Below, in pieces: positions 2,820 to 17,723 of a stretch of DNA of 17,723 nt. The position numbers and the translations under genes were made by a program. The DNA is from an uncultured bacterium. Lineage in GTDB: Bacteria; SAR324; NAC60-12. Numbering within the stretch: position 1 is the stretch's first letter; the number at the start of each line of letters is the position of its first letter. The stretch spans positions 1-17,723 of the forward strand of contig CAXGMD010000072.1 of assembly GCA_964010765.1 (NCBI GenBank), in the 5' to 3' direction. The notes beneath the pieces are model-generated. The model saw only the letters and a program-made list of their open reading frames with translations, did no database searches and was not told the DNA's origin.

Positions 2820-2822
2820 TAA

Positions 2823-3500
2823 ATGAGAAAAAAATTACTTTTTATTTATGCATTACTATTTTTTGCTTCTTTCTTTATTTTTTATTTTTTTTATCTTACA
2901 GAAAACGTTGAAAAATTTAATAGTCAAATAGAAAAAAATATTGAAAGAAATCTTTCAATAGATTGGGGCCCAAAAGAACCAAAACTTTTTGCAGAAGGAT
3001 ATTCTGCAGATATTTCTAATCTATCTTTAAATTTTGATAAATTTATCATTGAAATTCCGGCACATGATAAATCTCACATTCTAAATTTAGCAGAAAGATT
3101 AGTTTTTGACGAATGTAATTTTAAAATAAGTTTGATCTTCCTTCTTTTAGATCTTTATTGTAAAAAACTTACTACAAAACATGAAAATTCTATATTTGAT
3201 CCAAACACAGAGATTCTTTATTCCAACAACTTTTATTTTGATAATGATATTTTTCAGAGACTATTTAGTCGATTTAGATTTTTCGATCTCAAGTTTCATT
3301 TTGACGAGGTCTTAATTAACAATGTTTTGACACAAAATATTAATGGTGAATTGGAATTTCATAACGCTGAAAATGCGACTTTAACTATTGATGATCAGTT
3401 CATTGAATTTTTCAACAGATCAGAAGGTCTTGAGATTCAATATCAAAATCAGATTTTTTTCTTTTTGAACCAAAACTTCTTCCAACACTTTTGGAACTAA
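2823..3500 (+). CDS. Hypothetical protein with N-terminal membrane anchor
   Basis: 225-aa ORF in extremely AT-rich DNA, where long ORFs are unlikely by chance. It starts 3 nt after the upstream stop and begins MRKK followed by ~20 hydrophobic residues. Confidence 0.65.
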   Translation: MRKKLLFIYALLFFASFFIFYFFYLTENVEKFNSQIEKNIERNLSIDWGPKEPKLFAEGYSADISNLSLNFDKFIIEIPAHDKSHILNLAERLVFDECNFKISLIFLLLDLYCKKLTTKHENSIFDPNTEILYSNNFYFDNDIFQRLFSRFRFFDLKFHFDEVLINNVLTQNINGELEFHNAENATLTIDDQFIEFFNRSEGLEIQYQNQIFFFLNQNFFQHFWN

Positions 3501-3540: not shown

Positions 3541-3552
3541 CCAACTCAATGG

Positions 3553-3588
3553 TTGACTTTTAGGAAAAAACTAATATATCAATATATC
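3553..3588 (+). promoter_or_regulatory. Putative sigma70 promoter of the gntR-led cluster
   Basis: TTGACT at 3553-3558 is followed by an AT-rich -10 zone containing the tandem repeat AATATATC-AATATATC (3573-3588). No consensus -10 sits at exactly 17-bp spacing. Confidence 0.45.
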
Positions 3589-3627
3589 GAAAATTTGGAG
3601 AACTCATAAATTATCCTTTAACCATCC

Positions 3628-4335
3628 ATGGCTCTTCGTTCGCAAAAATCCGATACCGAGACGATCCGCATCAATCGTCGCTTGCCTATCGTTCCCCAAG
3701 TGCACTCAACTCTACATCACTTGATTGTTCATTGTGTGCTTCCACCTGGTTCCCCCATCCGCGAGAAAGATCTGAGTGAACAAATGGAAGTTTCTCGAAC
3801 ACCAATTCGAGAAGCACTGTTGCAACTTGAGAAAGAAGGCCTTGTCGAGATCTATCCGCAATCTGGAACACGTATTTCCAAAATTAGTATGGAGGAAGTG
3901 CGTGAGAGTCATTTCATACGTGAAGCCATGGAAAGTGCCACTGTCCGATTTGCGGCACAACAGGGTGATTCTCAATTATACAAACAACTGAACACCCGTT
4001 TGCAAGAATTCGAGGCTGCCTTAGGCACCGCTGAAAAAGATCTCTTGTTCGAATTGGATGAACTCTTTCATAAAACGATAGCGGAATTCCGCTTCCAGAA
4101 TAGACTCTGGAAAATCACAAATATCGCAAAATCACACATGGATCGTGTTCGGCACTTAACCCTTCCACTCCCAAAAAGGATTTATGAAATTGCTGATGAA
4201 CACCAACGAGTTACTGATTGTATTACCCAGCACCAACCAGACGACGCTGTGAGAGCAATCAAGGATCACCTTAGCGTGATTTTTTCCGATATTGAGCGAA
4301 TTCGAGCAGAACATTCAGAATATTTTGTTGAATAA
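3628..4335 (+). CDS. GntR-family (FadR/FCD) transcriptional regulator, RspR/YdfH-like
   Basis: wHTH motif PGSPIREKDLSEQMEVSRTPIREALLQLEKEGLV and FCD domain (LDELFH...DRVRH...EHQRV...HL). IVHCVLPPG and KISMEEVRESHFIREAME closely recall E. coli YdfH/RspR (comparison from memory). Confidence 0.93.
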   Translation: MALRSQKSDTETIRINRRLPIVPQVHSTLHHLIVHCVLPPGSPIREKDLSEQMEVSRTPIREALLQLEKEGLVEIYPQSGTRISKISMEEVRESHFIREAMESATVRFAAQQGDSQLYKQLNTRLQEFEAALGTAEKDLLFELDELFHKTIAEFRFQNRLWKITNIAKSHMDRVRHLTLPLPKRIYEIADEHQRVTDCITQHQPDDAVRAIKDHLSVIFSDIERIRAEHSEYFVE

Positions 4336-4359
4336 CTTTTCATCTAAACATATTTACTA

Positions 4360-5211
4360 ATGCCATATCTAACCCCAACTCAACTTTCCGAATTTGAACA
4401 AAATGGATTTCTGATTGAAAGAAACCTTTTTGATCCTGAAGAAACACAACTACTTCAGAAAGCTGCAAAAGATGATCAGGAACTGGATCGCCGAAGCCAA
4501 GGAAGAAGAGACAGGTCTGGTGCCACAGTCCGCCTTACACTTTGGAATCACCCGGGAGAGGGCATTTACGGAATGTTTGCCCGTTGCAAAAAGCTTGTTG
4601 GCAGAATGGAAGAACTGCTTGGCGGAGAAGTCTACCATTATCATTCAAAAATGATCCTCAAAGACCCTGAAATTGGAGGTGCTTGGGAATGGCATCAAGA
4701 TTATGGTTACTGGTATCACTATGGTTGCCTCCAACCTCTGATGGCGAGCGCTATGATAGCAGTAGATCCTGCCAAAGTAAGCAACGGTTGTCTCGAAGTT
4801 CTGAAAAGAAGCCATGTTCTAGGCCGCCTTGATCATTCCTTAGCTGGAGAGCAATCCGGTGCAGACCCTGAAAGAGTAGGGATCGCCATGAAGCGCTTCG
4901 ACAGAGTTGCAGTTGAATTGGAACCTGGCGACACACTGTTTTTTCACTGCAATCTTCTGCATTGTTCGGGTCAAAATCACTCCCCTGATCCTCGCTGGGC
5001 AATGATTTGTTGCTATAACGCTGCCCGTAATAATCCATTTAAAACCTCTAGACATCCTCAGTATACTCCTCTAGAGCAAGTGGATGACTCCCTTATCAAA
5101 ATGGTTGGTCTGAAAAGATTCAGTGAAGGTGGAGAGGTTGATTTTATGGGTGATAATGTTGATCGAAGCATCCCCGCAGATCTTCACAAACCAATGTCTG
5201 AAACAATATGA
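4360..5211 (+). CDS. Phytanoyl-CoA dioxygenase (PhyH) family Fe(II)/2-oxoglutarate dioxygenase
   Basis: N-terminal LTPTQLSEFEQNGFL, facial triad WHQD...LLHCS, NGCL...SH, PGDTLFFH, and the 2OG-binding Arg in NHSPDPR. Confidence 0.92.
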   Translation: MPYLTPTQLSEFEQNGFLIERNLFDPEETQLLQKAAKDDQELDRRSQGRRDRSGATVRLTLWNHPGEGIYGMFARCKKLVGRMEELLGGEVYHYHSKMILKDPEIGGAWEWHQDYGYWYHYGCLQPLMASAMIAVDPAKVSNGCLEVLKRSHVLGRLDHSLAGEQSGADPERVGIAMKRFDRVAVELEPGDTLFFHCNLLHCSGQNHSPDPRWAMICCYNAARNNPFKTSRHPQYTPLEQVDDSLIKMVGLKRFSEGGEVDFMGDNVDRSIPADLHKPMSETI

Positions 5212-6407
5212 GACCAACCACTGGAATTCGTCTCAGTTGGCCTGAGCTCAGAAAATTTTTGCACCAACATCTCACTGAACATGTTCTCCCATTCTGGTTT
5301 CCGAAACTGATTGATCTGAAACACGGGGGCTTGAACAATTGTGTTCATGATGATGGTGAAGTTCTCTCCACCGAAAAATATCTTTGGTCACAGGGCCGAG
5401 CTCTTTGGGTGCTGAGCAAACTTTTTAATGACATTGATCAGGATTCTAAATGGCTGGAGATGGCGGCTCCTATCTCAAAATTATTAACAGGTTATGGGAG
5501 GAATACCGGTGGAGATTGGTATTTCAGTTTAAACGCAGACGGCACCCCTGCAAAAGAACCTCAATCTATCTATGTAGATGGTTTCTGTATTTATGGGCTG
5601 ACAGAATATGCGAAAGCAACTGGTCACTCAAAGAGTCTGGACATAGCTTTGGAGGCTTACACCCACGCGAGTCCCAAGTTAGAGGATCATCGCTTAGTAA
5701 GAACAATGCCTCACCCAATTCCAACTGGGTTCCAGTCCCATGGTCCCCTGATGTTGTTTGCGCATGTTTTTCATGAACTGGGAATCCTGAGTGGCAGAGA
5801 TGACATCAAGCAGCGAGCCCTTGAATTGGCAGAAAGGATTCTATCTCAACATCTTGATCCTGAGTCCGGCCAACTTCATGAGTTTGTGGTTCCTGGTGGT
5901 CAAAAAAATTCCAGTGACATTGGACAGACAGCAATTCCAGGGCATGTGGTGGAAAGCATGTGGTTTTTGGAAGAGATCTATCGCTATCATGGTCAATCTG
6001 AAAAGATTCCATTATTGCTGGAGACCATGCGTACCCATCTTGAGCTTGGCTGGGACCAGCAATTTGGGGGTTTGGTTCTAGCGACTCATCTTGGAGATGG
6101 GAAGCCCAAGTGGCACAATCCGTATGGTAAAATCTGGTGGCCCCACACAGAAAGTCTACAAGCACTGCTGATGGCTTACGCTCATAAAAGAGAAAAATGG
6201 GCTGAGGACTGGTACTGGAAAATCCATGATTACAGCTTCACTCACTTTCCCAATTGGGATTCAGGAGACTGGTTTCACAATCTGGATCGTGAGGGAAAAC
6301 CGACGGTTCCCTATTTACAAACTCTTCCGGTTAAGGATCCTTTTCATTTGCCCAGAGCCCTAATTTATTCAATTCAAATCCTTGATCAACTTGGAGAAAC
6401 ATCATGA
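5208..6407 (+). CDS. AGE-family epimerase, N-acyl-D-glucosamine 2-epimerase-like
   Basis: Motifs VLPFW...D..HGG, KYLWSQGRALW, PGHVVESMWF, GWDQQFGG, KIWWPHTE, GDWF and KDPFHLPR, with both catalytic His retained. ATGA overlap with the upstream stop. Confidence 0.9.
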   Translation: MRPTTGIRLSWPELRKFLHQHLTEHVLPFWFPKLIDLKHGGLNNCVHDDGEVLSTEKYLWSQGRALWVLSKLFNDIDQDSKWLEMAAPISKLLTGYGRNTGGDWYFSLNADGTPAKEPQSIYVDGFCIYGLTEYAKATGHSKSLDIALEAYTHASPKLEDHRLVRTMPHPIPTGFQSHGPLMLFAHVFHELGILSGRDDIKQRALELAERILSQHLDPESGQLHEFVVPGGQKNSSDIGQTAIPGHVVESMWFLEEIYRYHGQSEKIPLLLETMRTHLELGWDQQFGGLVLATHLGDGKPKWHNPYGKIWWPHTESLQALLMAYAHKREKWAEDWYWKIHDYSFTHFPNWDSGDWFHNLDREGKPTVPYLQTLPVKDPFHLPRALIYSIQILDQLGETS

Positions 6408-7180
6408 CTACGTCTGATCCTCAAAAACGTTGGCTTATCGACCAACTACCTGTTGAATTGTACGCTAGTAACGAAGAACTCGGACAGGCAGCGGCAAAGA
6501 AAGCTCAACAAATCTTAAGTGAGGCAATCGACAAAAAAGGATTCGCTAACTTGATATTGGCAACCGGGAATTCTCAACTAACTTTTTTAAAAGCGTTGAG
6601 AAATTTGGGGGATGTTGATTGGCAGAAAGTCAGAATCTTCCACATGGACGAGTACATTGGAATCAATCCATCCCACCCAGCTAGTTTCCCTCTGTTCTTG
6701 GAAAACCATTTTCTTCAATTTACCAAGCCTGGTCATTTTCATCCCATTCCGAGTGAGACTTCGGATGTGGATTCCGCCTGCAAGGCCTATGAGGCATTGA
6801 TTCGTCAACACCCTGCTGATCTTGTCGCAATGGGATGGGGAGAAAACGGACACATTGCCTTCAACGATCCTCCAGATGCACATTTTGATGACCCACATTG
6901 GGTAAAAGTCGTCGAACTAGCAGAGGAAAGCCGCCTTCAGCAGGTTGGCGAAGGTCATTTTACTTCACTGGATGAAGTACCAAAACAGGCGATTACCTTG
7001 ACAATTCCTGCTCTTCTAGCTCCAGTACACATCCTTTGTATTGTTCCTGAAGCGAGAAAGGCTTCGGCTGTAAAGGCCTGCCTATCCGAACCGGTGGATG
7101 AATCTCGGCCAGGCTCTATCCTGAGAACAATTTCACATGCTACCTTATTGCTGGATCAAGATTCAGCTTCGCTACTCTAA
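6404..7180 (+). CDS. Glucosamine-6-phosphate deaminase-like protein (NagB/6PGL superfamily, divergent subfamily)
   Basis: LATGNSQ, FHMDEYIG, HPASF, GWGENGHIAFNDP and VPKQAITLTIP motifs. GGAG RBS and ATGA overlap with the epimerase stop. Confidence 0.88.
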   Translation: MTTSDPQKRWLIDQLPVELYASNEELGQAAAKKAQQILSEAIDKKGFANLILATGNSQLTFLKALRNLGDVDWQKVRIFHMDEYIGINPSHPASFPLFLENHFLQFTKPGHFHPIPSETSDVDSACKAYEALIRQHPADLVAMGWGENGHIAFNDPPDAHFDDPHWVKVVELAEESRLQQVGEGHFTSLDEVPKQAITLTIPALLAPVHILCIVPEARKASAVKACLSEPVDESRPGSILRTISHATLLLDQDSASLL

Positions 7181-7272
7181 ATTATCCAACAATGGAGTTG
7201 CCTATGCTTTAAATTATGGGTAAATGACAGCAGTCTTTTGTCCAATGAGTTCATTTCATTCCAAAAATCTTC

Positions 7273-7288
7273 ACTAACTGGAGTTAGT
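7273..7288. promoter_or_regulatory. Perfect inverted repeat, candidate transcription-factor operator upstream of the SBP gene
   Basis: ACTAACT-GG-AGTTAGT has 7-bp arms and a 2-nt spacer, and sits immediately before the RBS (AAAGAGGA) of the gene at 7305. Confidence 0.5.
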
Positions 7289-7304
7289 AGAAAGAGGACA
7301 CTTC

Positions 7305-9215
7305 ATGAAACGATCTACTTTTCTCAAATCTCTCATTGCTCTTGGTTTTTCTGCGATCATTGGGAGCACAGGAGCAATTGCAGGGGAATCCCCTGATCTT
7401 GCAGCTATGGTCAAAGCAGGGACATTGCCACCCTTGAATGAGCGTCTCCCCGAAATTCCATTGATGCTGCCTGTTGTTGACGAAATTGGTCAATACGGTG
7501 GCACACTTCGTCGCGCGTTTCTGGGGCCTGGTGACCACAACAACTATACAAGAGCTGTCTACGACGCACTGGTTCGTTATGCACCAGACGGAAGCCAAAT
7601 TGTTCCTCATATCGCTGCAGGTTGGGAATCTAACGAGAATTTCACGGAATGGATTATTCGCCTGAGACCAGGAGCTAAATGGTCAGACGGCACACCATTC
7701 ACCGCTGATGACATTATGTTCTGGTACGACAATATCTTGATGAACCAAGAACTAATGCCTGGTGGTGTTGGCTGGATGAAAAACGGAGATGGTTCAATGG
7801 CCTCAGTCCAAAAGCTTTCGGACTACCTGGTCAAGTGGACCTACAAGCAGCCAAACACAGCCTTCCTGCTGAACATGGCCAACCTGGATGGGGCTGACAA
7901 ATCAATCAGCAATTTGGTATTTGTCCCAGCTCATTATTTGAAGCAATTCCATCCGGATCACACCAGCAAGGCTAGCTTGGATGCCAAGGTCAAAGAAGCA
8001 GGTTTTGATACCTGGACCCAACTATTCGCGGTGGAAGCACTCCCACATTTGAGCGGTAATCGTCCTGGCATGGCGGCTTGGGTTCCAGATGGAACAACTG
8101 TTTCGGATCAGGTTTTCACGATCAAACGTAATCCGTATTTCGTTGGAGTCGATCCACAGGGCAACCAACTCCCCTATATTGACGAAATTCGCTTTACCTT
8201 CTTTGCAGACAAGGAAGCTTTGAACCTTGCAGCAGTCGCGGGTGAGATTGATTTCCAGGGGCGTCACATCAACATGAGTAGCTATCCTGTTCTCAAAGAA
8301 AACGAGAACAACGCAAACTATCGTGTGGTTACCTGGCCAACTTTTGGAGGCTCAGATGCTGTTGTGATGCTGAACCAAACGTGGACAGGTCCTGAAGGTG
8401 AGTACTTCCGCGATAAGAACTTCCGCATCGCGCTTTCTCACGCAATTGATCGAGATGCCATCAAGGAACTGGCGTTCTTCGGCCTTGGTGAAGCTCGTCA
8501 AGGAGTCCCTGCCCCCTTCCACCCTTACTACCCTGGAGATGAATACGCTTTCCGCTATACCGAGTTCAAACCAGAAGAAGCCTCGGCAATGTTGGATAAA
8601 GTTCTTCCAAACAAAAACAGCGATGGACATCGCTTGATGTCAAATGGACAGGTTCTGGACATTGAAATTGGGGTTGTCCCTCAATTTGGTGCTTGGCCAG
8701 ATATCGCACAATTGATTGTGGAGAATTGGGCAGAAGTCGGAGTCAAAGCACACGTGGAAATTCGTGAGCGAGCTCAACACTTCTCGATGCGTCCGGCCAA
8801 TGAGTTGATGTCAGAGGTCTGGAACGAAGACACGACGGGCTTCCCTTTCAGCGGTCAACCTAAGTTTGATCCTCGAAGTGATCCAGCTCTGACTTTTGCA
8901 CCCTTGGTTGCCAAGTGGTATGCGTCCGGCGGTAAGGAAGGACAGGCTCCACCTGCTGAAATCAAGCGCTTGGTCGACATCATTGATGAAGCCAAAACTT
9001 CTGGACGTAATCGGCAAATCGCTCTAGCCAAAGAACTCTTCCAAATCTGGGCTGACAATGTCTGGGAAATTGGAACTGTTGGGATGACCCCAATGATCCA
9101 GGGAGTTCTGGTTGCGAATGATAAGCTGCGTAACGTTCCAGCTGTTGCTGGAAACGACTGGCCTCTGCGTACTCCTGGAGATACACGTCTCGAGCAGTAT
9201 TTCTATTCACGCTGA
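7305..9215 (+). CDS. ABC transporter substrate-binding protein, family 5 (OppA/DppA-like, probably carbohydrate-binding)
   Basis: Signal peptide ending AIA-GE; LPPLNERLP...GQYGGTLR; LRPGAKWSDGTPFTADDI family-5 signature; RNPYF..D..GNQLPYID; FRIALSHAIDRDAI. Strong RBS. Confidence 0.95.
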   Translation: MKRSTFLKSLIALGFSAIIGSTGAIAGESPDLAAMVKAGTLPPLNERLPEIPLMLPVVDEIGQYGGTLRRAFLGPGDHNNYTRAVYDALVRYAPDGSQIVPHIAAGWESNENFTEWIIRLRPGAKWSDGTPFTADDIMFWYDNILMNQELMPGGVGWMKNGDGSMASVQKLSDYLVKWTYKQPNTAFLLNMANLDGADKSISNLVFVPAHYLKQFHPDHTSKASLDAKVKEAGFDTWTQLFAVEALPHLSGNRPGMAAWVPDGTTVSDQVFTIKRNPYFVGVDPQGNQLPYIDEIRFTFFADKEALNLAAVAGEIDFQGRHINMSSYPVLKENENNANYRVVTWPTFGGSDAVVMLNQTWTGPEGEYFRDKNFRIALSHAIDRDAIKELAFFGLGEARQGVPAPFHPYYPGDEYAFRYTEFKPEEASAMLDKVLPNKNSDGHRLMSNGQVLDIEIGVVPQFGAWPDIAQLIVENWAEVGVKAHVEIRERAQHFSMRPANELMSEVWNEDTTGFPFSGQPKFDPRSDPALTFAPLVAKWYASGGKEGQAPPAEIKRLVDIIDEAKTSGRNRQIALAKELFQIWADNVWEIGTVGMTPMIQGVLVANDKLRNVPAVAGNDWPLRTPGDTRLEQYFYSR

Positions 9216-9226
9216 GTCACACTCCT

Positions 9227-9259
9227 TGCGGTCTGACTTCTTTTTGGAGCCAGACCGCA
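9227..9259 (+). terminator. Intergenic stem-loop after the SBP gene (transcript stabiliser or partial terminator)
   Basis: TGCGGTCTGACTTC-TTTTT-GGAGCCAGACCGCA forms a 14-bp stem with one mismatch and one G-U pair. There is no downstream U-run. Confidence 0.65.
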
Positions 9260-9288
9260 CTCCAAACGTCTGTCCCAGACATTCCTGA

Positions 9289-10278
9289 ATGCTAATCTAC
9301 ATTATCAAGCGGCTCCTGCTGTTGCCGTTCTTGCTACTGATCTTTTCTATCATCGCCTTCCTCTTGATCCAAGCTCCTCCTGGTGACTTTCTAACCAGCT
9401 ATATTGCTGAATTAGCAGCATCAGGTTCCTCGATGGAAAGGGCCCAGATTGATGCGCTGCGGGCGCTCTATGGCCTTGATCAGCCCATGTATCTCCAATA
9501 TTTCAAATGGATGGGAAGAATCCTGACTGGAGACCTAGGAGTCTCATTGGATTGGCAACGTCCCATTAGTGAGCTAATCGGTGAGCGCATGGGGCTCACC
9601 CTTGCCCTTGGCTTGGGAACATTTGTATTTACATGGTTGATTGCGATTCCGATTGGGATTTTCTCAGCTACACGCAAGTACTCTTTTTTTGATTACTTCT
9701 TCACTGTTTTTAATTACTTCGGTGTTGCCACACCAACCTTCATGACCGCTTTAGTCCTGATGTGGATTGCCTTCAAATACTATGGCGTGAGCATTACAGG
9801 ACTTTTCTCGGCAGAGTACATTGACGCTCCCTGGAGTTGGGATCGAGTTGTAGATTTGTTGCAGCACTTATGGCTCCCCGTTGTCATTCTTGGGTTGGAT
9901 GGAACTGCCCGGCTTGCCAGAGTGATGCGAGCCAACTTGCTCGACGAGCTAAAAAAACCCTATATGGAGATGGCAAGGGCTAAGGGCCTCTCCGAGTGGC
10001 GTCTCGTCATGAAATATCCTGTCCGTTTAGCACTGAATCCTCTTGTCAGTACGATTGGCTGGTATCTACCTCTCATCTTTTCTGGAAGTGTGATTGTCGC
10101 AACGGTAATGAATTTGCCCACGATAGGCCCCATGCTACTTAGGGCTCTGATCAGTCAGGATATGTTTCTGGCAGGCACAATCATTCTCTTCTACATGATG
10201 CTGGCAGTGGTTGGTACATTGATTTCTGACATCCTCTTGGCTTGGCTGGATCCAAGAATTCGACTGGATGAGGAGTGA
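9289..10278 (+). CDS. ABC transporter permease (OppB/DppB-like)
   Basis: YIIKRLL start, YGLDQPMYLQYFKWM...GDLGVS, EAA-loop equivalent YMEMARAKGL, DMFLAG and LDPRIR. Confidence 0.95.
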   Translation: MLIYIIKRLLLLPFLLLIFSIIAFLLIQAPPGDFLTSYIAELAASGSSMERAQIDALRALYGLDQPMYLQYFKWMGRILTGDLGVSLDWQRPISELIGERMGLTLALGLGTFVFTWLIAIPIGIFSATRKYSFFDYFFTVFNYFGVATPTFMTALVLMWIAFKYYGVSITGLFSAEYIDAPWSWDRVVDLLQHLWLPVVILGLDGTARLARVMRANLLDELKKPYMEMARAKGLSEWRLVMKYPVRLALNPLVSTIGWYLPLIFSGSVIVATVMNLPTIGPMLLRALISQDMFLAGTIILFYMMLAVVGTLISDILLAWLDPRIRLDEE

Positions 10279-10279
10279 G

Positions 10280-11782
10280 ATGTTACAAAAGTCAGAAAAT
10301 AAACCCAATATTGTTTTGATCGTGCCGGATCAACTCCGACCTGACTTTCTTGGGTGCTACGGTGCGAAGTTCATTCAAACCCCTAATATCGATAAGCTTG
10401 CCCAACAAGGGTTACAATTCAATCGGGCCGTATCGCCCTCCCCAATCTGCATTCCAGCTAGGGCATCCCTACTCACAGGACACAATGCCCTCTCCACTGG
10501 AGTGTTAACGAACAATTACTGGCTGCGCCCAGATCATGAGGATTGTGGTCTTCTCAGTATTACCAGCATCTTATTAGAAAACGGCTATCACACTGAGGGG
10601 ATCGGCAAGATGCACTTCATCCCCTGGGACCAAGAGGCGGGGTTCAGTCATCGATGGATTGCTGAAGACAAGCGCCACATCCATATTCAGGATGACTACG
10701 CTGATTATTTAGCAGCACAAGGTCTTCGGAAGCTTGCTGGAACAGAAGAACCTAACTACCGCGAGGGCCGAATGGCTTCGGTCAGCCCAATCCCGTTGGA
10801 ACATCAAGTAGATGTTTGGGTTGGAGATCGGAGTGTGGAGTTCATCAAGGATTGTCCTCAGGATAGACCATACTTTCTGTGGGTGGCTTTTCCAGGACCC
10901 CACGATCCTTATAATCCACCTGCAGAAATTCTTAATTCCATGCGCCCGGCAGAAGAGTTTCCCTTCTCAATTCCTGGAACATTTGACAGTCAGACCTTCC
11001 AAAGAGGGTTTATCCACGCCCACCTCAGTGGATCAGCCCAAGCAGATTTTCGAGAGTTTCCGGAACTAGCCAAACAGATCATTCGACGACACTATGCAGG
11101 TTTGGTTCAGATCATTGATCACCAAGTCGGAAAAATTTTAAGTGCTATCGAAGAGCAAGATTCTGAGCGTGAGACACTGATCATCTTCACATCAGATCAC
11201 GGTGATTTTCTGGGTGATTTTGACATGGTTGGCAAAGCTTTATTCTACGAATCTTCTTCTCGTGTACCCCTGATCGCGAGAGGAACGCCATATCGGGTTG
11301 GACAATCCAAGAGCTTGGTTTCGTTGACTGATCTTTATGCAACAATCCTCAATCACGCGGGAATAAAGATGATAGCTCAGGACTCCCAAGCAATCCCCAC
11401 AAAGCCTGATCAGCAGACTCGTAAACACATCATAGGAGCCACAGGTGCTGGGCTGATGTGGTGCGACGAGCGCTGGAAATTATCACGCTACAAGAATGGA
11501 CTTAGTACTTTGTTTGATTTGGAAGCGGACCCCCTCGAACAAAACAACCTACTTCTTGATCCTGATTTTGCTGATATTCGGAACCAGGTGGAAGCAGAGT
11601 TAACCAAATCTTTGATGGAAGGTCTGGTTCAGGGTCATCAAGAAAAATCATATCCCTACATGACACTTACGCCAGATCATGATGGGCATCATCGAAATTG
11701 GCAGCGCCCCTATCCAGCCAATACATGGGACAAATTTGAGGAAATCAAAGCCAATTGGGGAAAAGCAGGAATGCCCGTATGA
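10280..11782 (+). CDS. Formylglycine-dependent (Cys-type, S1) sulfatase, cytoplasmic
   Basis: KPNIVLIVPDQLR, TPNIDKLA, SPICIPARASLLTG (CxPxR), GKMH, PHDPY, FTSDHG and LFDLEADPLEQNNL. Start placed at ATG 10280 behind GAGGAG rather than 10268. No signal peptide. Confidence 0.92.
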   Translation: MLQKSENKPNIVLIVPDQLRPDFLGCYGAKFIQTPNIDKLAQQGLQFNRAVSPSPICIPARASLLTGHNALSTGVLTNNYWLRPDHEDCGLLSITSILLENGYHTEGIGKMHFIPWDQEAGFSHRWIAEDKRHIHIQDDYADYLAAQGLRKLAGTEEPNYREGRMASVSPIPLEHQVDVWVGDRSVEFIKDCPQDRPYFLWVAFPGPHDPYNPPAEILNSMRPAEEFPFSIPGTFDSQTFQRGFIHAHLSGSAQADFREFPELAKQIIRRHYAGLVQIIDHQVGKILSAIEEQDSERETLIIFTSDHGDFLGDFDMVGKALFYESSSRVPLIARGTPYRVGQSKSLVSLTDLYATILNHAGIKMIAQDSQAIPTKPDQQTRKHIIGATGAGLMWCDERWKLSRYKNGLSTLFDLEADPLEQNNLLLDPDFADIRNQVEAELTKSLMEGLVQGHQEKSYPYMTLTPDHDGHHRNWQRPYPANTWDKFEEIKANWGKAGMPV

Positions 11783-11804
11783 ATCATTTTGCGCGAGCCT
11801 ACAG

Positions 11805-12938
11805 ATGACTTCTCAAACTACCTTGAGCAGTGAAGTCAGCGAAAAGATTAAGGATGAGGCCTTTGACGTAGCCCCTAATTGGAAGCTTGTCTGGTGGCGT
11901 TTCAAGAAGCATCGGTTAGCTTTAGTCAGTGCATTCGTACTGTTTGGGATCATTCTAATTGCCTTGTTCCCTGATTTCTTCAGTATCCAAGATCCCAACA
12001 AATCAAGCGCTCGTGAATCTTTCATGCCGCCTCAGGGGATATCCTTTTTCCACAATGGAAGTTTTCAGGTCCATGTCAAACCACTCAAAGGGAAACGGAA
12101 TAAGACAACGCTTAAGATGGAGTGGGGAGTCGATGAGAAGAGAATTTTACCACTACATTTCTTCACAAGTGGTTATGAATACGAGGTTTTTGGGCTTTTC
12201 AAAACAGATCTACACCTCTTTGGTATTGAAAAACCGTCTGCTCGGAATTCGTTCCACCTACTGGGTACCGATCGTTTAGGCCGTGATCAGTGGTCTCGAC
12301 TGATGCATGGAACCAGAGTTTCACTTTCAATCGGGCTAGTCGCGGTTGGACTCAGTATTTTTCTTGGGATTCTGCTCGGTGGAATCTCAGGATATTACGG
12401 AGGCTGGCCTGACTTGGTCATTCAAAGATTGATCGAGATCCTTCAATCACTGCCACCTATTCCAATCTGGATGGCCTTGACTGCTGCCTTGCCCAGAGAC
12501 TGGACGGTAGAGCAGACTTACTTTGCGATCACTCTCATTCTTTCTCTACTGGGTTGGACCACACTCGGTCGAGAGGTTCGTGGTAGATTTTTGTCATTGA
12601 GAGAAGAAGACTTCGTCATGGCTGCAAAACTCTCTGGTTGCAGCCAAAGTCGTATCATCTTCCGACACATGCTACCCACCTTCACAAGTCACATCATTGC
12701 TACCAGTACTCTGGCGATTCCGGTAATGATCATTAACGAAACATTTTTAAGTTTCTTAGGTCTCGGTTTGCGTCCGCCTGCAATCAGCTGGGGTGTACTC
12801 TTACAAGAAGCGCAGAATCTTCAGTCGATTGCCCTGGCTCCTTGGTTGTTGCTTCCTGGCTTGGCTGTCATCTTTACCGTTCTTGCGCTGAACATCCTGG
12901 GGGATGGCTTGCGTGATGCCGCCGACCCTTACAGTTGA
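11805..12938 (+). CDS. ABC transporter permease (OppC/DppC-like)
   Basis: WWRFKKHRLA, LLGTDRLGRDQWSR, EDFVMAAKLSG, ETFLSFLGLG..PP..SWG and GDGLRDAADP. Start placed at ATG 11805 to avoid a ~100-nt overlap with the sulfatase. Confidence 0.95.
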   Translation: MTSQTTLSSEVSEKIKDEAFDVAPNWKLVWWRFKKHRLALVSAFVLFGIILIALFPDFFSIQDPNKSSARESFMPPQGISFFHNGSFQVHVKPLKGKRNKTTLKMEWGVDEKRILPLHFFTSGYEYEVFGLFKTDLHLFGIEKPSARNSFHLLGTDRLGRDQWSRLMHGTRVSLSIGLVAVGLSIFLGILLGGISGYYGGWPDLVIQRLIEILQSLPPIPIWMALTAALPRDWTVEQTYFAITLILSLLGWTTLGREVRGRFLSLREEDFVMAAKLSGCSQSRIIFRHMLPTFTSHIIATSTLAIPVMIINETFLSFLGLGLRPPAISWGVLLQEAQNLQSIALAPWLLLPGLAVIFTVLALNILGDGLRDAADPYS

Positions 12939-12946
12939 GAACAAAA

Positions 12947-13978
12947 ATGACAAATCAGCCCTTGCTGGAAGTCCGGGATCTGCAGACTGTTTTTGAACTT
13001 GATGAGGGGACCGTCAGAGCGGTTGATGGAGTCAGCTTTAATGTGTATCCAGGTAGAGTTTTAGGGATTGTTGGTGAAAGTGGCTGCGGCAAAAGTGTAA
13101 CCATCAAGTCCGTCCTACGATTGATCGAAGAACCCGGCAGAATTGCCAACGGTGCCATTCGCTTCCGGTCAAAAATTCTGGGTAATTCCTCTGCTGAGAT
13201 GGTTGATCTCGTTCAATTACCTGCTAAGAGTGCCCAATTGAGAGCCCTGCGAGGGAATGAGATCGCACTGATTCCCCAAGAACCCATGGCTGCCTTCAGT
13301 CCAGTGCATACCATTGGCAATCAATTGATGGAGGTGATTCAACTCCATCAACCCGTCAGTGACGGAGAAGCAAAAAAAATTGCGGTAAATCGTCTCAAAG
13401 AAGTTGGAGTTCCAAATCCAGAAAGCGCAATAGATCGCTATTCTTGGGAACTGAGTGGCGGGCTTCGTCAACGCGCAATGATCGGAATGGCTCTTACCTG
13501 TGATCCACTTCTTTTAATAGCTGATGAACCCACCACAGCCATTGATGTCACCACACAGGCTCAGGTGCTGAGCCTGCTGCGTAAGCTTCAGCAGGAGCAT
13601 CAGACATCAATCATCTTCATCACCCATGACCTTGGGGTGATCGCCCAACTCGCGGATGATGTCGTGGTGATGTACCTAGGCAAGGTGATGGAGAGCGGCC
13701 CAGTTGATCAAATTTTTCATAATCCCCAACATCCCTACACGCGGGCTCTACTAAGGTCTATCCCAACCGTCTACACAAAGAATCGTAGTCGTCTACCAAC
13801 GATCTCAGGATCAATTCCTCACCCATTCCAAAAGCGCACTGGCTGTCCCTTCGTGGCTCGCTGCCAAGAGGCTCTTCCAGAACAGCGGTGTGCCAATCAA
13901 GCACCAGCACTCAAAGCAATCAATGAACACCAATCAGTGAGTTGCTTCCTTCATGGAGAGGAGGTCAATGTCAGCTGA
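12947..13978 (+). CDS. ABC transporter ATP-binding protein (OppD/DppD-like)
   Basis: Walker A GESGCGKS, signature LSGGLRQR, Walker [14 protein letters not shown], and the C-terminal oligo_HPY region HPYT...[11 protein letters not shown] 12947 preferred over TTG 12935. Confidence 0.95.
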
Positions 13979-15032
13979 ACCAACCCAATCAACTTTGACC
14001 AATAATGCGCTCATATCTCCGGAGCGTTTGCTAGATGTTAAAGAGTTGAAAAAATATTTTCCTATCCGAAAGGGGGTTTTTAAAAGTGTAGTCGGCCAAG
14101 TACGATCTGTTGATGGGGTTACATTTCATTTAAACCAGGGAGAGACCTTAGGACTTGTGGGTGAAAGTGGCTGTGGAAAAACAACCACCTCCCGCTGTCT
14201 GCTGCGTGCCATAAATCCAACATCCGGTGAAATTCGTTATCGACAAGCTGATGGACAATTGGTGGATGTGACACAACTAGCCAGTGACCAACTGAGACCT
14301 GTACGTCGGGAAATGCAGATGATCTTTCAAGATCCATTTGCCTCTCTCAATCCTCGAATGAACCTACTGGATCTTGTCGGTGAACCTCTTTTGGTCAACG
14401 GTGTCGCCAATCGCAAAGAACGAAGCGATCGAGTCGCTGATCTGCTTCGTCTTGTGGGCCTGAGACCAGAATATATGCGTCGGTTTCCCCATGCGTTTAG
14501 TGGAGGTCAACGACAAAGAATCGTGATTGCCCGCGCCCTGGCACTCAATCCTCGTCTGGTTGTAGCCGATGAACCAGTCTCTGCTTTGGATGTTTCAGTA
14601 CAGGCCCAGGTACTCAATCTATTGCTGGATCTCCAGGAACAGTTGAAGCTGACGTACCTGTTTGTTGCCCATGACTTGAGTGTCGTCCGTCACATTAGCG
14701 ATCGTGTGGCCGTAATGTATGTGGGCCGGATCGTAGAAATGTCTCCAACGGATGAGCTTTTCCTGGCACCAAAGCACCCCTACACCGCAGCTTTGCTATC
14801 AGCCGTACCGGTTGCTGATCCTAGAATTCGCTCAAAGATGCAACCCTTGGAAGGTGACGTGCCCAGTCCTTCCAATCCCCCTAACGGCTGTCATTTTCAT
14901 CCCAGATGTCCCTTTGCCACTGAGTTGTGTCGGCAACAAGCACCAGACTTGGAAGAAGTCCAACCTAATCACTTCGTGGCCTGTCATCGGCAAGCTGAGT
15001 TAAAATTGTCTGGTGTCTCTGAGCCAACCTGA
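13968..15032 (+). CDS. ABC transporter ATP-binding protein (OppF/DppF-like)
   Basis: [37 protein letters not shown] and HPYT...[11 protein letters not shown] 13968 lies behind a GGAGGT RBS. Confidence 0.95.
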
Positions 15033-15044
15033 TCCTAGTAAAAC

Positions 15045-16169
15045 ATGCTCTTTTCAGCTGACCAAAAAGTTCACGTCGACAAGCAAGGGGCTCTAAAAGA
15101 GTCCCTTCAGACGGTTGATGGCACATTTCAATCTGAACGAAAGAGGACCCTTGGGTTGTGTGATATCCAGCTCAATGGCTTTGCTGGCATTGATTTTAAC
15201 AATCCAAACTTAAACCCCGAAGATTTTCATCGATCGATGCAGGCTCTCCTAAGAACTGGAGTGACCAACGTACTTCCGACATTGATCACTGCTAACCAAG
15301 GTGATCTGTATCGAAACTTTGAAGCATTGGAGAGGGCACGGGCGTTCTCTCCCATTGCCCAGATGATGGTGAAAGGATATCACCTGGAGGGACCTTTTCT
15401 CAATCCAGCCCAAGGTTTTGCAGGTTGCCATCCATCCCAGTTCATGGGTAGAAAGCCATCTTGGGAAAAGTTTGTGAGTTGGCAAGCTGCAGCAGGAGGT
15501 CGAATAAAGCTTCTAACTGTGGCTCCAGAGATGCCCGGTGTTCTTGAATTGATTACCAAATGCGTTGAAAGTGGGGTCCGCGTATCCCTCGGTCATACAA
15601 ACGCTTCGCACGAAGATATCCGAAAAGCTGTGGGGGCTGGGGCATCGTTGTCAACACACTTGGGCAATGGTGTTGCTCAGTTATTACCAAAGGTTGACAA
15701 TCCGATCTTGAGCCAACTTGCTGAGGAAGGTCTTACTGCCAGTTTTATTGCGGATGGCTTTCATCAGAAACCTCATGTACTGCGCGTCTACATCAAAGCC
15801 AAGGGTTCAGACCGAACCATCTTAGTCAGTGATGGAACTGCAGCTTCAGGGACAGTTCCTGGAACCTATTACTTAGGTGCTACAAAGATTCAGTCCAAAC
15901 CTGAGGGTGTGGTGCATCTCTTTGGAACCCAGAATCTTGCTGGTTCAGCGGCAACTCTGCTGGAATGTCTGCAAAATGTCATGAGTTGGTACAACACCTC
16001 TCTGGAACAAGGAATTCGCTGGACCTCAATCCAACCTAGAAAGCTTTTGGGCTGGCCAACTACACAAAATGTTGGAGATCTTGCTGAATTGTTGGAGTGG
16101 GAATACATCAATGATCGATGGACCCCAGCATCTGTTCAACTTGGCACGCAGATCATCAAAATTCATTGA
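15045..16169 (+). CDS. N-acetylglucosamine-6-phosphate deacetylase-like amidohydrolase (NagA family, divergent THLGNG type)
   Basis: DIQLNGFAG, LPTLIT, HLEGPFLN, GCHP, TVAPE, SLGHTNA, THLGNG, IADGFH, VSDG and LAGSA. Confidence 0.88.
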   Translation: MLFSADQKVHVDKQGALKESLQTVDGTFQSERKRTLGLCDIQLNGFAGIDFNNPNLNPEDFHRSMQALLRTGVTNVLPTLITANQGDLYRNFEALERARAFSPIAQMMVKGYHLEGPFLNPAQGFAGCHPSQFMGRKPSWEKFVSWQAAAGGRIKLLTVAPEMPGVLELITKCVESGVRVSLGHTNASHEDIRKAVGAGASLSTHLGNGVAQLLPKVDNPILSQLAEEGLTASFIADGFHQKPHVLRVYIKAKGSDRTILVSDGTAASGTVPGTYYLGATKIQSKPEGVVHLFGTQNLAGSAATLLECLQNVMSWYNTSLEQGIRWTSIQPRKLLGWPTTQNVGDLAELLEWEYINDRWTPASVQLGTQIIKIH

Positions 16170-16213
16170 AGAAACAACTGGAAGCACACAAAAACTCAAA
16201 TGGAGCGATACTA

Positions 16214-17644
16214 ATGAAACCCTCTTCGCCATTTAATCACCCAGATAGACTGTTCAGTTCAGATCCATCCCAACGCAATGTTGCGCGAAGGCTTTTTGAG
16301 GAAGTTCGTGATCTACCCATCGTTAGTCCACATGGTCACACCGATCCAAGTTGGTTTGCTCTAAACCAAAATTTTGGGAATGCAACAGAACTGTTCCTGA
16401 TTCCTGACCATTACCTATTCAGAATGCTCTACAGCCAGGGAATTTCCCTAACAGATTTGGGAATTCCGACCCGTGATGGCTCACCTACAGAGAACGATCA
16501 CAGGAAAATTTGGCGAATATTTACTGAGCATTATTATCTATTTCGTGGGACTCCCTCCAAGATTTGGTTCGATCACGCCCTCCATGAGGTTCTAGGGATC
16601 AACATTCCCATGTTGCCGGAGAATGCCGACCAAATTTACGACGAAGTGAACGCAAAACTCTCAAGCGAAGCCTTTCGTCCGCGTGCCTTGTTCGAACGCT
16701 TTCAAATCGAGATCCTGGCAACAACTGAATCTCCTCTAGATCCCCTGACTCACCATCAAACTCTTAAAGATTCAGACTGGCAGGGTAATGTCATTACCGC
16801 TTTCCGTCCAGATCCGGTGGTTGATCCTGAATTTGAGGGTTTTGCTGAGAATATTGAGAAGTTGGCTGAAACTACCGGAGAAAACGCTCTTACTTGGGAT
16901 GGATATCTCAAGGCCTTGCAACAGCGAAGAGAATATTTCAAGTCGATGGGAGCCGCCTCCACAGATCATGGGCACCCAACCGCGACTACAGCAGATCTTT
17001 CTCGAGCCGAATGCGAACGACTCCTGACGGGAGCACTTGCAGGGAAACTGAGTGCAGAAGAAGCAGATCAGTTTCGAGGGCAAATGATGACGGAAATGGT
17101 GAGGATGAGTCTGGACGATGATCTTGTTGTTCAGTTGCATCCAGGTTCATTCCGTAATCATAATCAACCGCTCTTCGAACGGTTTGGCCGTGACAAAGGA
17201 GCGGATATTCCAATGGCAACTGACTATGTCAATGGTCTGAGGCCACTACTAAATAAATTTGGCAATGAACCTCGACTCAGCATGATTCTGTTCACTTTGG
17301 ATGAGACCAGCTATAGCCGAGAGTTAGCTCCACTCGCTGGACACTATCCCATCCTCAAGCTAGGCCCTGCCTGGTGGTTCTATGACAGTCCTGAAGGGAT
17401 GTTACGCTTCCGTCGACAAACGAACGAAACCACGGGCTTTTACAACACTGTTGGTTTCAATGATGACACCCGAGCTTTCATGTCGATCCCTGCTAGACAC
17501 GATTTGGCTCGACGAATTGACTGCCGCTATCTTGCTGAACTTGTTTGTGAACATCGAATGAGCGAAGAGGAAGCAAGGGAAGTTGCCATTGATCTAGCCT
17601 ACCGGCTCGTAAAGAAAGCTTATCGATTCAATGAGGAAAAATGA
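16214..17644 (+). CDS. uxaC: Uronate (glucuronate) isomerase
   Basis: LPIVSPHGHTDP, PDHYLFRMLYSQG, FRGTPS, TDHGH, QLHPGSFRNHN, RELAPLAGHYP, GPAWWF, GFNDDTRAF and PARHD. Start at ATG 16214 behind GGAG. Confidence 0.96.
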   Translation: MKPSSPFNHPDRLFSSDPSQRNVARRLFEEVRDLPIVSPHGHTDPSWFALNQNFGNATELFLIPDHYLFRMLYSQGISLTDLGIPTRDGSPTENDHRKIWRIFTEHYYLFRGTPSKIWFDHALHEVLGINIPMLPENADQIYDEVNAKLSSEAFRPRALFERFQIEILATTESPLDPLTHHQTLKDSDWQGNVITAFRPDPVVDPEFEGFAENIEKLAETTGENALTWDGYLKALQQRREYFKSMGAASTDHGHPTATTADLSRAECERLLTGALAGKLSAEEADQFRGQMMTEMVRMSLDDDLVVQLHPGSFRNHNQPLFERFGRDKGADIPMATDYVNGLRPLLNKFGNEPRLSMILFTLDETSYSRELAPLAGHYPILKLGPAWWFYDSPEGMLRFRRQTNETTGFYNTVGFNDDTRAFMSIPARHDLARRIDCRYLAELVCEHRMSEEEAREVAIDLAYRLVKKAYRFNEEK

Positions 17645-17723
17645 GTCGCGCAGTAGCACTGCTAGAAAAATTTGGTAATCGCTACCCCCGAGAATCCTGT
17701 GGAATTGGTATTGTTCATCTCGG
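17641..17723 (+). CDS. Mannitol dehydrogenase family oxidoreductase, probably fructuronate reductase (UxuB-like); 5' end only
   Basis: ATGA overlap with the uxaC stop. It reads MSRAVALLEKFGNRYPRESCGIGIVHLG, and Y-x-R...GIVHLG is the N-terminal signature of the mannitol dehydrogenase/UxuB family. Not in the ORF track because it runs off the window. Confidence 0.8.
   Translation, partial: MSRAVALLEKFGNRYPRESCGIGIVHL

Follow-up and report, generated by a model that had tools for sequence, protein, structure and literature searches.

An apparently uncharacterised SAR324 operon for catabolism of a uronate-bearing N-acetyl amino sugar, possibly by kinase-free deamination to fructuronate

What compound would call for an ABC importer, the enzymes of N-acetyl amino sugar breakdown and the first enzymes of hexuronate breakdown to be encoded in a single string of genes? 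The question is raised by a 17,723-nucleotide stretch of DNA (the window; GCA_964010765.1, CAXGMD010000072.1), which is the entire contig C72 of a 3.86-Mb, 92%-complete SAR324 genome and in which such a string runs from position 3,628 to the end. Comparison across genomes, metagenomes and plasmids points to a real and conserved operon, apparently an uncharacterised catabolic set for a uronate-bearing N-acetyl amino sugar. We further propose, with slightly less than even confidence, that the operon would import an N-acetylhexosaminuronate and degrade it without a kinase to D-fructuronate and ammonia, every substrate and reaction here being predicted from sequence. The genes are as follows:

3628..4335, + strand: GntR/FCD regulator (PF00392 and PF07729)
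4360..5211, + strand: PhyH-family iron/2-oxoglutarate dioxygenase, an accessory (Pfam; H112-x-D114, H201, R212)
5208..6407, + strand: AGE-family N-acyl-sugar 2-epimerase of a distinct subfamily (Pfam, PDB matches, motifs)
6404..7180, + strand: predicted NagB-like deaminase of a separate clade (Pfam Glucosamine_iso, tree)
7305..9215, + strand: SBP_bac_5, family-5 (cluster C) solute-binding protein (SBP) (Pfam; uronate-site residues N79, R83, W619)
9289..10278, + strand: ABC permease, OppB type (Pfam, NCBIfam)
10280..11782, + strand: S1 sulfatase, Cys type, an accessory (Pfam; C-I-P-A-R motif)
11805..12938, + strand: ABC permease, OppC type (Pfam, NCBIfam)
12947..13978, + strand: ABC ATPase, OppD type (Pfam)
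13968..15032, + strand: ABC ATPase, OppF type (Pfam)
15045..16169, + strand: amidohydrolase, predicted NagA-like de-N-acetylase (Pfam, residue alignment)
16214..17644, + strand: UxaC uronate isomerase (NCBIfam cut-off passed)
17641..17723, + strand: UxuB, fructuronate reductase family, first 27 codons (match to a relative's Mannitol_dh)

The initial annotation had listed thirteen co-directional genes, and Pfam matches all the families it named; gene starts were refined. The string comprises 12 whole genes and 27 codons of uxuB. This last fragment, earlier called UxuB-like, is 96% identical to the full Mannitol_dh protein of a relative, and the rest of the gene lies on contig C56, the end of which shares 20 nucleotides (nt) with the window end. 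A fourteenth gene, of the Ldh_2 family, follows uxuB in the host genome and in two relatives (G002 and G005). ATGA overlaps join PhyH to AGE, AGE to NagB and uxaC to uxuB, and the widest intergenic gap is the 124 nt between nagB and the SBP gene. UxaC, present in a single copy in the host genome, is the sole operon enzyme above its NCBIfam cut-off (574.3 against 387 bits for NF002794).

Does this set recur elsewhere? A search with the SBP gave 74 loci, of which the 43 at 51% identity or more were analysed and the 31 more distant ones served as an alignment control only. Counts over these importer loci are lower bounds, as many loci end at contig ends (five were extended). AGE is found in 28 of them, the NagB-like protein in 27, a uronate gene in 20, the NagA-like protein and UxaC in 16 each, PhyH in 14 and a URO-D-like protein in 6. 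The loci come from SAR324/Deltaproteobacteria, Alphaproteobacteria, Granulosicoccus-type Gammaproteobacteria, Chloroflexota and Trueperaceae, with records named only ‘bacterium’ grouped by similarity. The neighbourhood conservation that the initial annotation had left to be checked is thus borne out in several phyla, and the recurring core is the family-5 importer, AGE, the NagB-like and NagA-like proteins and the hexuronate lower route. A kinase of the ROK, BadF or AnmK type is found in none of the 43 importer loci, none of 33 metagenome loci and none of 12 plasmid loci, and a glycoside hydrolase in one importer locus (GH88). Among 45 genomes of the family, the same 14 have AGE and the clade NagB; 13 of these also have UxaC and 12 ManD, whereas the remaining 31 include 5 with UxaC and 3 with ManD.

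How firmly is this amino-sugar module tied to uronate metabolism? From 80 metagenome loci we dropped 47 shorter than 9 kb (one of which, L166, carries a ROK-like gene on the opposite strand). A uronate gene is present in 22 of the 33 kept (11 of the 21 outside SAR324), compared with 1 of 31 ordinary-NagB loci; it is present in none of 11 ordinary-NagB loci taken from 19 in the window's own family, six of which have a window-type NagA. Four distinct lower routes adjoin the NagB clade: UxuB with ManD (in SAR324), UxuB with UxuA, UxaE with SDR, LarA and FGGY and in part 6PGD (in Chloroflexota), and KduI with SDR. Four Chloroflexota loci read NagA-NagB-URO-D-epimerase-UxaC-UxaE, in part followed by SDR, LarA and FGGY; we take these Chloroflexota families (with 6PGD) to be the Thermotoga uxaE/uxaD/gntE/gntK/gnd set, which they resemble. 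On plasmids, where NagA-like and NagB-like queries returned 27 and 17 records and 12 regions were opened, the NagA/NagB pair stands with other transporters and with SIS, ceramidase-like and divergent AGE genes. Three of the 12 (from Agrobacterium, Nitratireductor and Ancylobacter) combine uxuA and uxuB with a clade NagB, the Ancylobacter locus having also uxaA and AGE, but no NagA. None of these three plasmids has uxaC, the chromosomes of their hosts not having been searched. Across phyla the parts are non-orthologous: NagA and the sulfatase each come in two clades, AGE in two groups and the transporter in several types. The uronate link is strong in the sub-branch to which the window belongs and is also seen in two further branches, and it is not universal.

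Might the genes simply be neighbours? A mosaic scavenging operon, with ordinary N-acetylglucosamine (GlcNAc) or N-acetylmannosamine (ManNAc) catabolism and glucuronate catabolism under one regulator and no common substrate, would fit the shuffled gene order among SAR324 loci and relatives such as G001 that have uxaC and manD but not the module. It would also fit the proteins BT_3587 and BT_3588, putative members of the NagB-like module. One report treats this pair as NagB/NagA isozymes that are induced on mucin and have neutral knock-down fitness (PMC13634575), and BT_3605 is called a nanE-II in another (PMC8461474). We nevertheless judge a mosaic improbable, since several phyla show the link with parts that are not orthologous, and the importer SBP itself has uronate-site residues.

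The NagB-like protein is the most distinctive enzyme of the set. In a FastTree analysis of 71 of its relatives, thinned at 75% identity, and 21 ordinary NagBs, the 71 form one clade with a support of 0.915. All 71 keep the catalytic D82, H150 and K219 (E. coli NagB D72, H143 and K208), and the clade is marked by S-Q instead of T-P, H80, E147, D155 and a QQxxEG lid, with S57 in 69, Q58 in 68 and D155 in 69 of the 71; the ordinary controls have T in 20, P in 21 and E (Glu148) in 21 of 21. The window protein falls below the TIGR00502 cut-off (131.3 against 236.9 bits); with it as query 7892 of 8000 scored candidates pass E 1e-40, the clade members among them not having been counted. In S. mutans NagB, phosphate is contacted by Ser37, Thr38, Lys194, Arg127 (through water) and the lid Arg159 (PMC8369159). 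These positions correspond to N56, S57, K219, E147 and G184 in the window protein, and with these changes the pocket appears less positive. G184 replaces the lid arginine in 68 of the 71 clade sequences, and only 7 of the 21 ordinary NagBs have that arginine. Ordinary and clade NagBs coexist in 6 of the 14 family genomes. A divergent clade NagB was seen in Mesorhizobium beside an amino-acid ABC transporter and an N-methyltryptophan-oxidase-like gene (L210:11983-15832).

What does the importer recognise? Homologues of the SBP that are 93% and 85% identical come from SAR324, and the protein misses the NCBIfam OppA, DppA and NikA cut-offs (at best 78.7 against 393 bits). Its nearest solved relatives are T. 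maritima 5IPW, SPH1118 (PDB 7VER, E 4e-73) and an alpha-galactoside binder, and those with a named ligand are sugar binders. Asn53, Arg57 and Trp594 of SPH1118 hold galacturonate, Arg57 through a charged bond to the carboxylate, and 5IPW is without Arg57 and Trp594, according to the SPH1118 report (PMC9314435). The three residues align to N79, R83 and W619 of the window SBP. N79 and R83 are present in 53 of 53 orthologues, compared with 2 and 24 of 93 distant homologues, whereas W619 and R489 occur in 80 of those 93 and are non-diagnostic. Arg496 of SPH1118 subsite 1 is Lys in the window SBP, and the subsite-2/3 residues Arg438, Asn324 and Asp483 are not conserved in window-type SBPs. The uronate-site residues support an imported ligand that carries an acid, although the ligand itself is predicted.

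The other two enzymes of the trio likewise keep known catalytic residues and fall below known family cut-offs. AGE finds its best PDB matches in AGEs (E 8e-62, against 1e-15 for cellobiose epimerase and 6e-4 for YihS), keeps the conserved Arg, two catalytic His and Glu, carries as subfamily marks an extra His178 and KDPFHLPR, and scores 249.1 against 600 bits for NF052547. The NagA-like enzyme keeps E115, H184, H205, H240 and D263 (E. coli E131, H195, H216, H251 and D273), has K216 at the position of E. coli Arg227 and scores 197.7 against 225.65 bits for TIGR00221. Two further groups came to light. A divergent AGE-fold group (GWIQGRG ... GH-IEF ... LDPGYH; L047:5371-6567, L123:17614-18855, L119, L121, L122, L125) has no Pfam match at 1e-8 and adjoins SIS and ceramidase-like genes in alphaproteobacterial loci. 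A second nagB-nagA pair in SAR324 relatives (L254-L256, L259-L261) has ordinary NagB motifs without the lid arginine, is in most cases not flanked by a kinase and adjoins GH20-like or sugar ABC genes.

How could these parts work together? We propose that the family-5 ABC system would take up an acid of the N-acetylmannosaminuronate (ManNAcA) or N-acetylglucosaminuronate (GlcNAcA) type, sometimes O-sulfated, by its C6 carboxylate, and that the cytoplasmic sulfatase, perhaps with PhyH, would remove decorations. AGE would invert C2 of the free N-acetyl sugar, and the NagA-like enzyme would take off acetate. By analogy with the conversion of glucosamine 6-phosphate to fructose 6-phosphate, the NagB-like enzyme would then deaminate and isomerise 2-amino-2-deoxy-glucuronate to fructuronate and ammonia. 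UxuB would reduce fructuronate to mannonate and ManD would convert it to 2-keto-3-deoxygluconate (KDG), with a KdgK-like kinase next; UxaC would handle plain glucuronate. AGE requires a free, unphosphorylated sugar, which deamination to fructuronate would fit, and entry at UxuB would explain the loci without uxaC, kinase or glycosidase. Direct deamination without a kinase is the mechanism that the data favour, and it was not part of the initial annotation. That annotation had suggested looking beyond the contig end for uxuA or manD, kdgK, eda and glycosidases. ManD (C10:6165) and the KdgK-like kinase (C162:101) were found, ManD being 84% identical to a cluster-linked ManD in G009 whose best PDB matches are mannonate dehydratases; GH20, GH88 and PL22 were not found in the 92%-complete genome, nor were BadF kinase and NagE. 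Three GH4 genes lie on C25, and the sole match to a KduI query (37.5%) lies within an inositol-type cluster. N-acetylmuramate, with its lactyl ether, was considered as the substrate and dropped: it leaves the uronate genes unexplained, and no MurQ match was found in the host genome.

Several observations weigh against a kinase-free route. The loci and genomes are related, so that their counts are not independent and none is a statistical test. In a random Chloroflexota sample from 401 genomes (15 of 16 clade hits, the centre genome being left out, and 20 of 56 weaker hits), a uronate gene is present in 2 of the 15 clade loci, or in 3 if a short uxaE fragment is counted, against 1 of 20 controls, and a kinase-sized ROK adjoins the clade NagB in 2 of the 15; a class-wide search around G066 found NagA-like genes in 3 of 401 genomes, too few for counting. 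PGI adjoins the clade NagB gene in one locus (L158), uxaC lies elsewhere in the genome in 4 of 5 alpha- and gammaproteobacterial genomes tested, and KDPG aldolase (PF01081), the eda product, was not found in the 92%-complete host genome. In 6 of 11 SAR324-family control loci the NagA that accompanies an ordinary-motif NagB belongs to a sister group of the window-type NagA, and it is therefore possible that the NagA-like enzyme acts on N-acetylglucosamine 6-phosphate. These control loci mostly have no adjacent N-acetylhexosamine (HexNAc) kinase, so that kinase absence is not diagnostic; neither is loss of the lid arginine, which is missing from 14 of 21 ordinary NagBs. The two together, once taken as proof of an unphosphorylated substrate, were dropped for this reason. 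Finally, UxaC would be dispensable in the proposed route, yet it is in 16 of the 43 importer loci.

This last point would be expected if the operon took in a disaccharide of uronate and HexNAc, with or without sulfate, from a glycosaminoglycan (GAG)-like polymer or exopolysaccharide (EPS), and split it in a way not yet recognised: by oxidation through PhyH in aerobes, by elimination through Gfo/cupin proteins in Chloroflexota, or by a hydrolase encoded elsewhere. The uronate would pass through UxaC, UxuB and ManD; the HexNAc would lose its sulfate and be epimerised, and once a ROK kinase had phosphorylated it, NagA and NagB would handle it as usual. Also against the kinase-free route and for a disaccharide, the solved SBP relatives bind oligosaccharides and the host genome has a ROK kinase on C61. 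Gfo is present in 11 and cupin in 13 of the 43 loci, GH88, KduI or PL22 adjoin some homologues (L046, L180), the NagA-like enzyme has a basic residue at the phosphate position, and the window NagA and NagB are the only homologues of either found in the host genome. The loci, however, have no conserved glycosidase or lyase, the three plasmids with uxuA and uxuB have neither uxaC nor a hydrolase within the fetched 25 kb, and SPH1118 subsites 2 and 3 are not conserved. A separate NagB clade would moreover be needless, yet 6 of the 14 family genomes keep it together with an ordinary NagB. The GAG-like oligosaccharide of the initial annotation thus stays a candidate, one with a GH in a single locus, and we regard a disaccharide substrate as rather unlikely, though it is the leading alternative to the kinase-free route.

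Is sulfate part of the substrate? The initial annotation had joined sulfate, N-acetyl-amino and uronate features in one compound; the recurring neighbourhood and the SBP residues bear out the latter two, and the sulfate does not hold as a general feature. The window-type sulfatase occurs in 10 of the 43 importer loci; another 11 have a sulfatase from an unrelated S1 clade (24-28% identity), and no sulfatase was found in the 12 plasmid loci. Sulfatase and PhyH are swappable accessories, and sulfate is not a defining feature. The window sulfatase has the S1 motif C/S-x-P-x-R (CIPAR), and PF03781, the maturation-enzyme family, has matches in the host genome that are candidate formylglycine-generating enzymes. 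No signal peptide is visible, so that a sulfated compound would enter the cytoplasm. In SAR324 and L050 the sulfatase gene separates the two permease genes, which are adjacent in other lineages. The best solved match is 7oz8 (E 3e-41), taken as BT1918 from the HATCY motif in the aligned chain. BT1918 is an S1_46 3S-GlcNAc sulfatase with N-acetyl-binding residues Y94, R327 and Y408, as given in a preprint (bioRxiv 10.1101/2021.07.23.453482). In a pairwise alignment the window sulfatase keeps the R143 equivalent and none of Y94, R327 and Y408; it does not match the S1_46 residue set (Y94/N174/R327/Y408), and no subfamily could be assigned.

A sulfated N-acetylhexosamine, whose 6-sulfate would mimic phosphate through the NagA-like and NagB-like steps with the uronate genes as passengers, would suit the in-operon sulfatases of 21 of the 43 loci and a NagB-like anion pocket that retains some of its residues (S57, K219) and is less positively charged. 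Arg57 of SPH1118 also binds the sulfo group of MES in the same report (PMC9314435), so that R83 could grip sulfate, a further point against a uronate ligand. Sulfatases are missing, however, from about half of the importer loci and from every one of the 12 plasmid loci, four unrelated uronate routes recur near the clade NagB, and the N-acetyl-binding residues of BT1918 have no aligned counterparts; a phosphate mimic therefore seems quite improbable to us.

The 2-oxoglutarate dioxygenase, which the initial annotation counted into the set, is present in the window, but with PhyH in 14 of 43 loci, all from SAR324 apart from two Granulosicoccus-type ones, it is accessory only. PhyH possibly removes a methyl or other decoration. 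No firm assignment was reached: among solved structures it comes closest to amino-acid hydroxylase-like proteins (E 2e-25), and a 54% paralogue lies by itself at C19. URO-D-like proteins occur in Chloroflexota and in several metagenome loci, in part together with genes for B12-binding, pterin-binding and RACo proteins. The split between PhyH and URO-D might, as a speculation, reflect oxidative versus corrinoid demethylation of a methylated sugar, and it is confounded by lineage. In eight loci (L211-L214, L181, L187, L189, L190) two or three URO-D/MtaA-like proteins follow nagB-like, sometimes with corrinoid, pterin methyltransferase and RACo genes. One SAR324 branch has extra genes within the operon, desaturase-like (L035, L150, L152) or for an aldo-keto reductase (L035, L040, L048, L143).

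Beyond this operon, the whole of the widespread NagB-like clade, now annotated as glucosamine-6-phosphate deaminase or 6-phosphogluconolactonase, could be hexosaminuronate deaminases that form, with AGE and the NagA-like enzyme, a kinase-free recycling route. Through it N-acetylhexosaminuronates from the capsules and EPS of other microbes would reach hexuronate pathways, with sulfatases, PhyH (in aerobes) and URO-D/corrinoid proteins (in anaerobes) as interchangeable decoration removers. We hold this extension to be possible, and more tentative than the proposal for the operon. N-acetylhexosaminuronates are common in bacterial surface polysaccharides; if the reading is true, it names a breakdown route for them, re-annotates a large NagB-like family and identifies a specific component of dissolved organic matter as a substrate of an abundant marine lineage. 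As the module has cultured carriers (Nitratireductor, Ancylobacter, Devosia, Martelella), the reading can be tested on three purified enzymes.

How is the operon controlled? Two elements emerge from comparison of the loci:

3553..3582, + strand: predicted sigma70 -35 box (3553), with a palindromic operator (3571-3582) that overlaps the -10 region (locus comparison)
7194..7212, + strand: Shine-Dalgarno and two-codon mini-open reading frame (mini-ORF; ATG-NNN-stop) between nagB and the SBP gene, some 95 nt ahead of the start of the latter (SAR324 comparison)

A TTGAC box, a spacer of 12-13 nt and a TAATATATTA-like palindrome precede GntR in most SAR324 loci, L035 and L140 excepted, and the full pattern occurs once in the host genome; the palindrome is predicted to be an operator, likely bound by the GntR protein. 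A generic promoter and terminator scan did no better than shuffles (8 vs 16.9 and 12 vs 13.4), so the promoter call draws on the locus comparison instead. An operator-like palindrome without the -35 spacing lies before another PhyH-like gene in an enolase/SDR/aldolase cluster (G000:C2:67129-68059). The mini-ORF is kept in most SAR324 loci with a varying middle codon and stop (the stop is lost in L033 and L129), and by holding a ribosome it might stabilise a processed SBP transcript. Metatranscriptome contigs of four runs, from salt marsh and estuary samples, cover 3547-17723 (the first bin is missing in one run), one contig spanning 5630-8815; 1774-3546 is nearly empty, and the upstream genes may be absent from the sampled strains. 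This coverage fits expression of the operon and does not prove a single transcript.

Upstream of the operon, 1377-3500 holds two low-GC (about 0.28-0.30) co-directional ORFs of 480 and 225 amino acids without Pfam match, the longer encoding a multi-pass membrane protein that looks glycosyltransferase-like by eye; the pair is present in G005, L126 and L127, and G002, G003 and G006 have other genes there. A lone C-terminal part of a TRAP DctP gene (PF03480) at 251-766 may be a pseudogene, as relatives' contigs have an extra base at 734 and the G005 copy is degenerate. On the minus strand, 875-1342 encodes a 155-amino-acid ORF with a lipoprotein-like N-terminus and no Pfam match, also present in G005. 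An Rfam scan of the window gave no match.

How does the operon compare with known systems? The literature searched, from which subscription journals are largely absent, held no paper on aminouronate or N-acetylhexosaminuronate breakdown or on this cluster, in keeping with the initial annotation of an uncharacterised combination. GAG disaccharide clusters consist of a lyase, GH88 and KduI/KduD; with GH88 in 1 of 43 importer loci and neither GH88 nor PL22 found in the host genome, the operon stands apart from these. SPH1118, the pectin-binding cluster C protein of Sphingomonas sp. A1, shares its subsite-1 residues with the window SBP, which is without the subsite-2/3 residues and has no pectin enzymes near its gene, and BT1918, the closest solved likeness of the sulfatase, shares R143 and differs in the residues of N-acetyl recognition. 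The AGE/kinase/NagA/NagB amino-sugar route (E. coli nagAB, L206), which exists in a variant with AGE and a ROK kinase, uses the same folds and catalytic residues as the window enzymes; here, by contrast, the trio falls below the NCBIfam cut-offs, NagB has its own loop and lid signature, the loci have no kinase and hexuronate enzymes lie downstream. The Ashwell route (UxaC, UxuB, and UxuA or ManD) is represented by a true UxaC, a following UxuB and a ManD elsewhere, and its Thermotoga counterpart is the UxaE/UxaD/GntE/GntK/Gnd set (PMC3750489); the difference is that an upper module for amino sugars is coupled to these routes here, with fructuronate as its predicted point of entry. Closest in logic is the ong pathway of Pseudoalteromonas prydzensis, which converts GlcNAc1A to KDG-6-phosphate, acetate and ammonia by reactions reported to resemble those of D-amino-acid degradation (PMC9537276). 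There too an N-acetylated sugar acid is broken down, with its acid at C1 (an aldonate), whereas the acid here would be at C6 and the enzymes have AGE, NagA and NagB folds.

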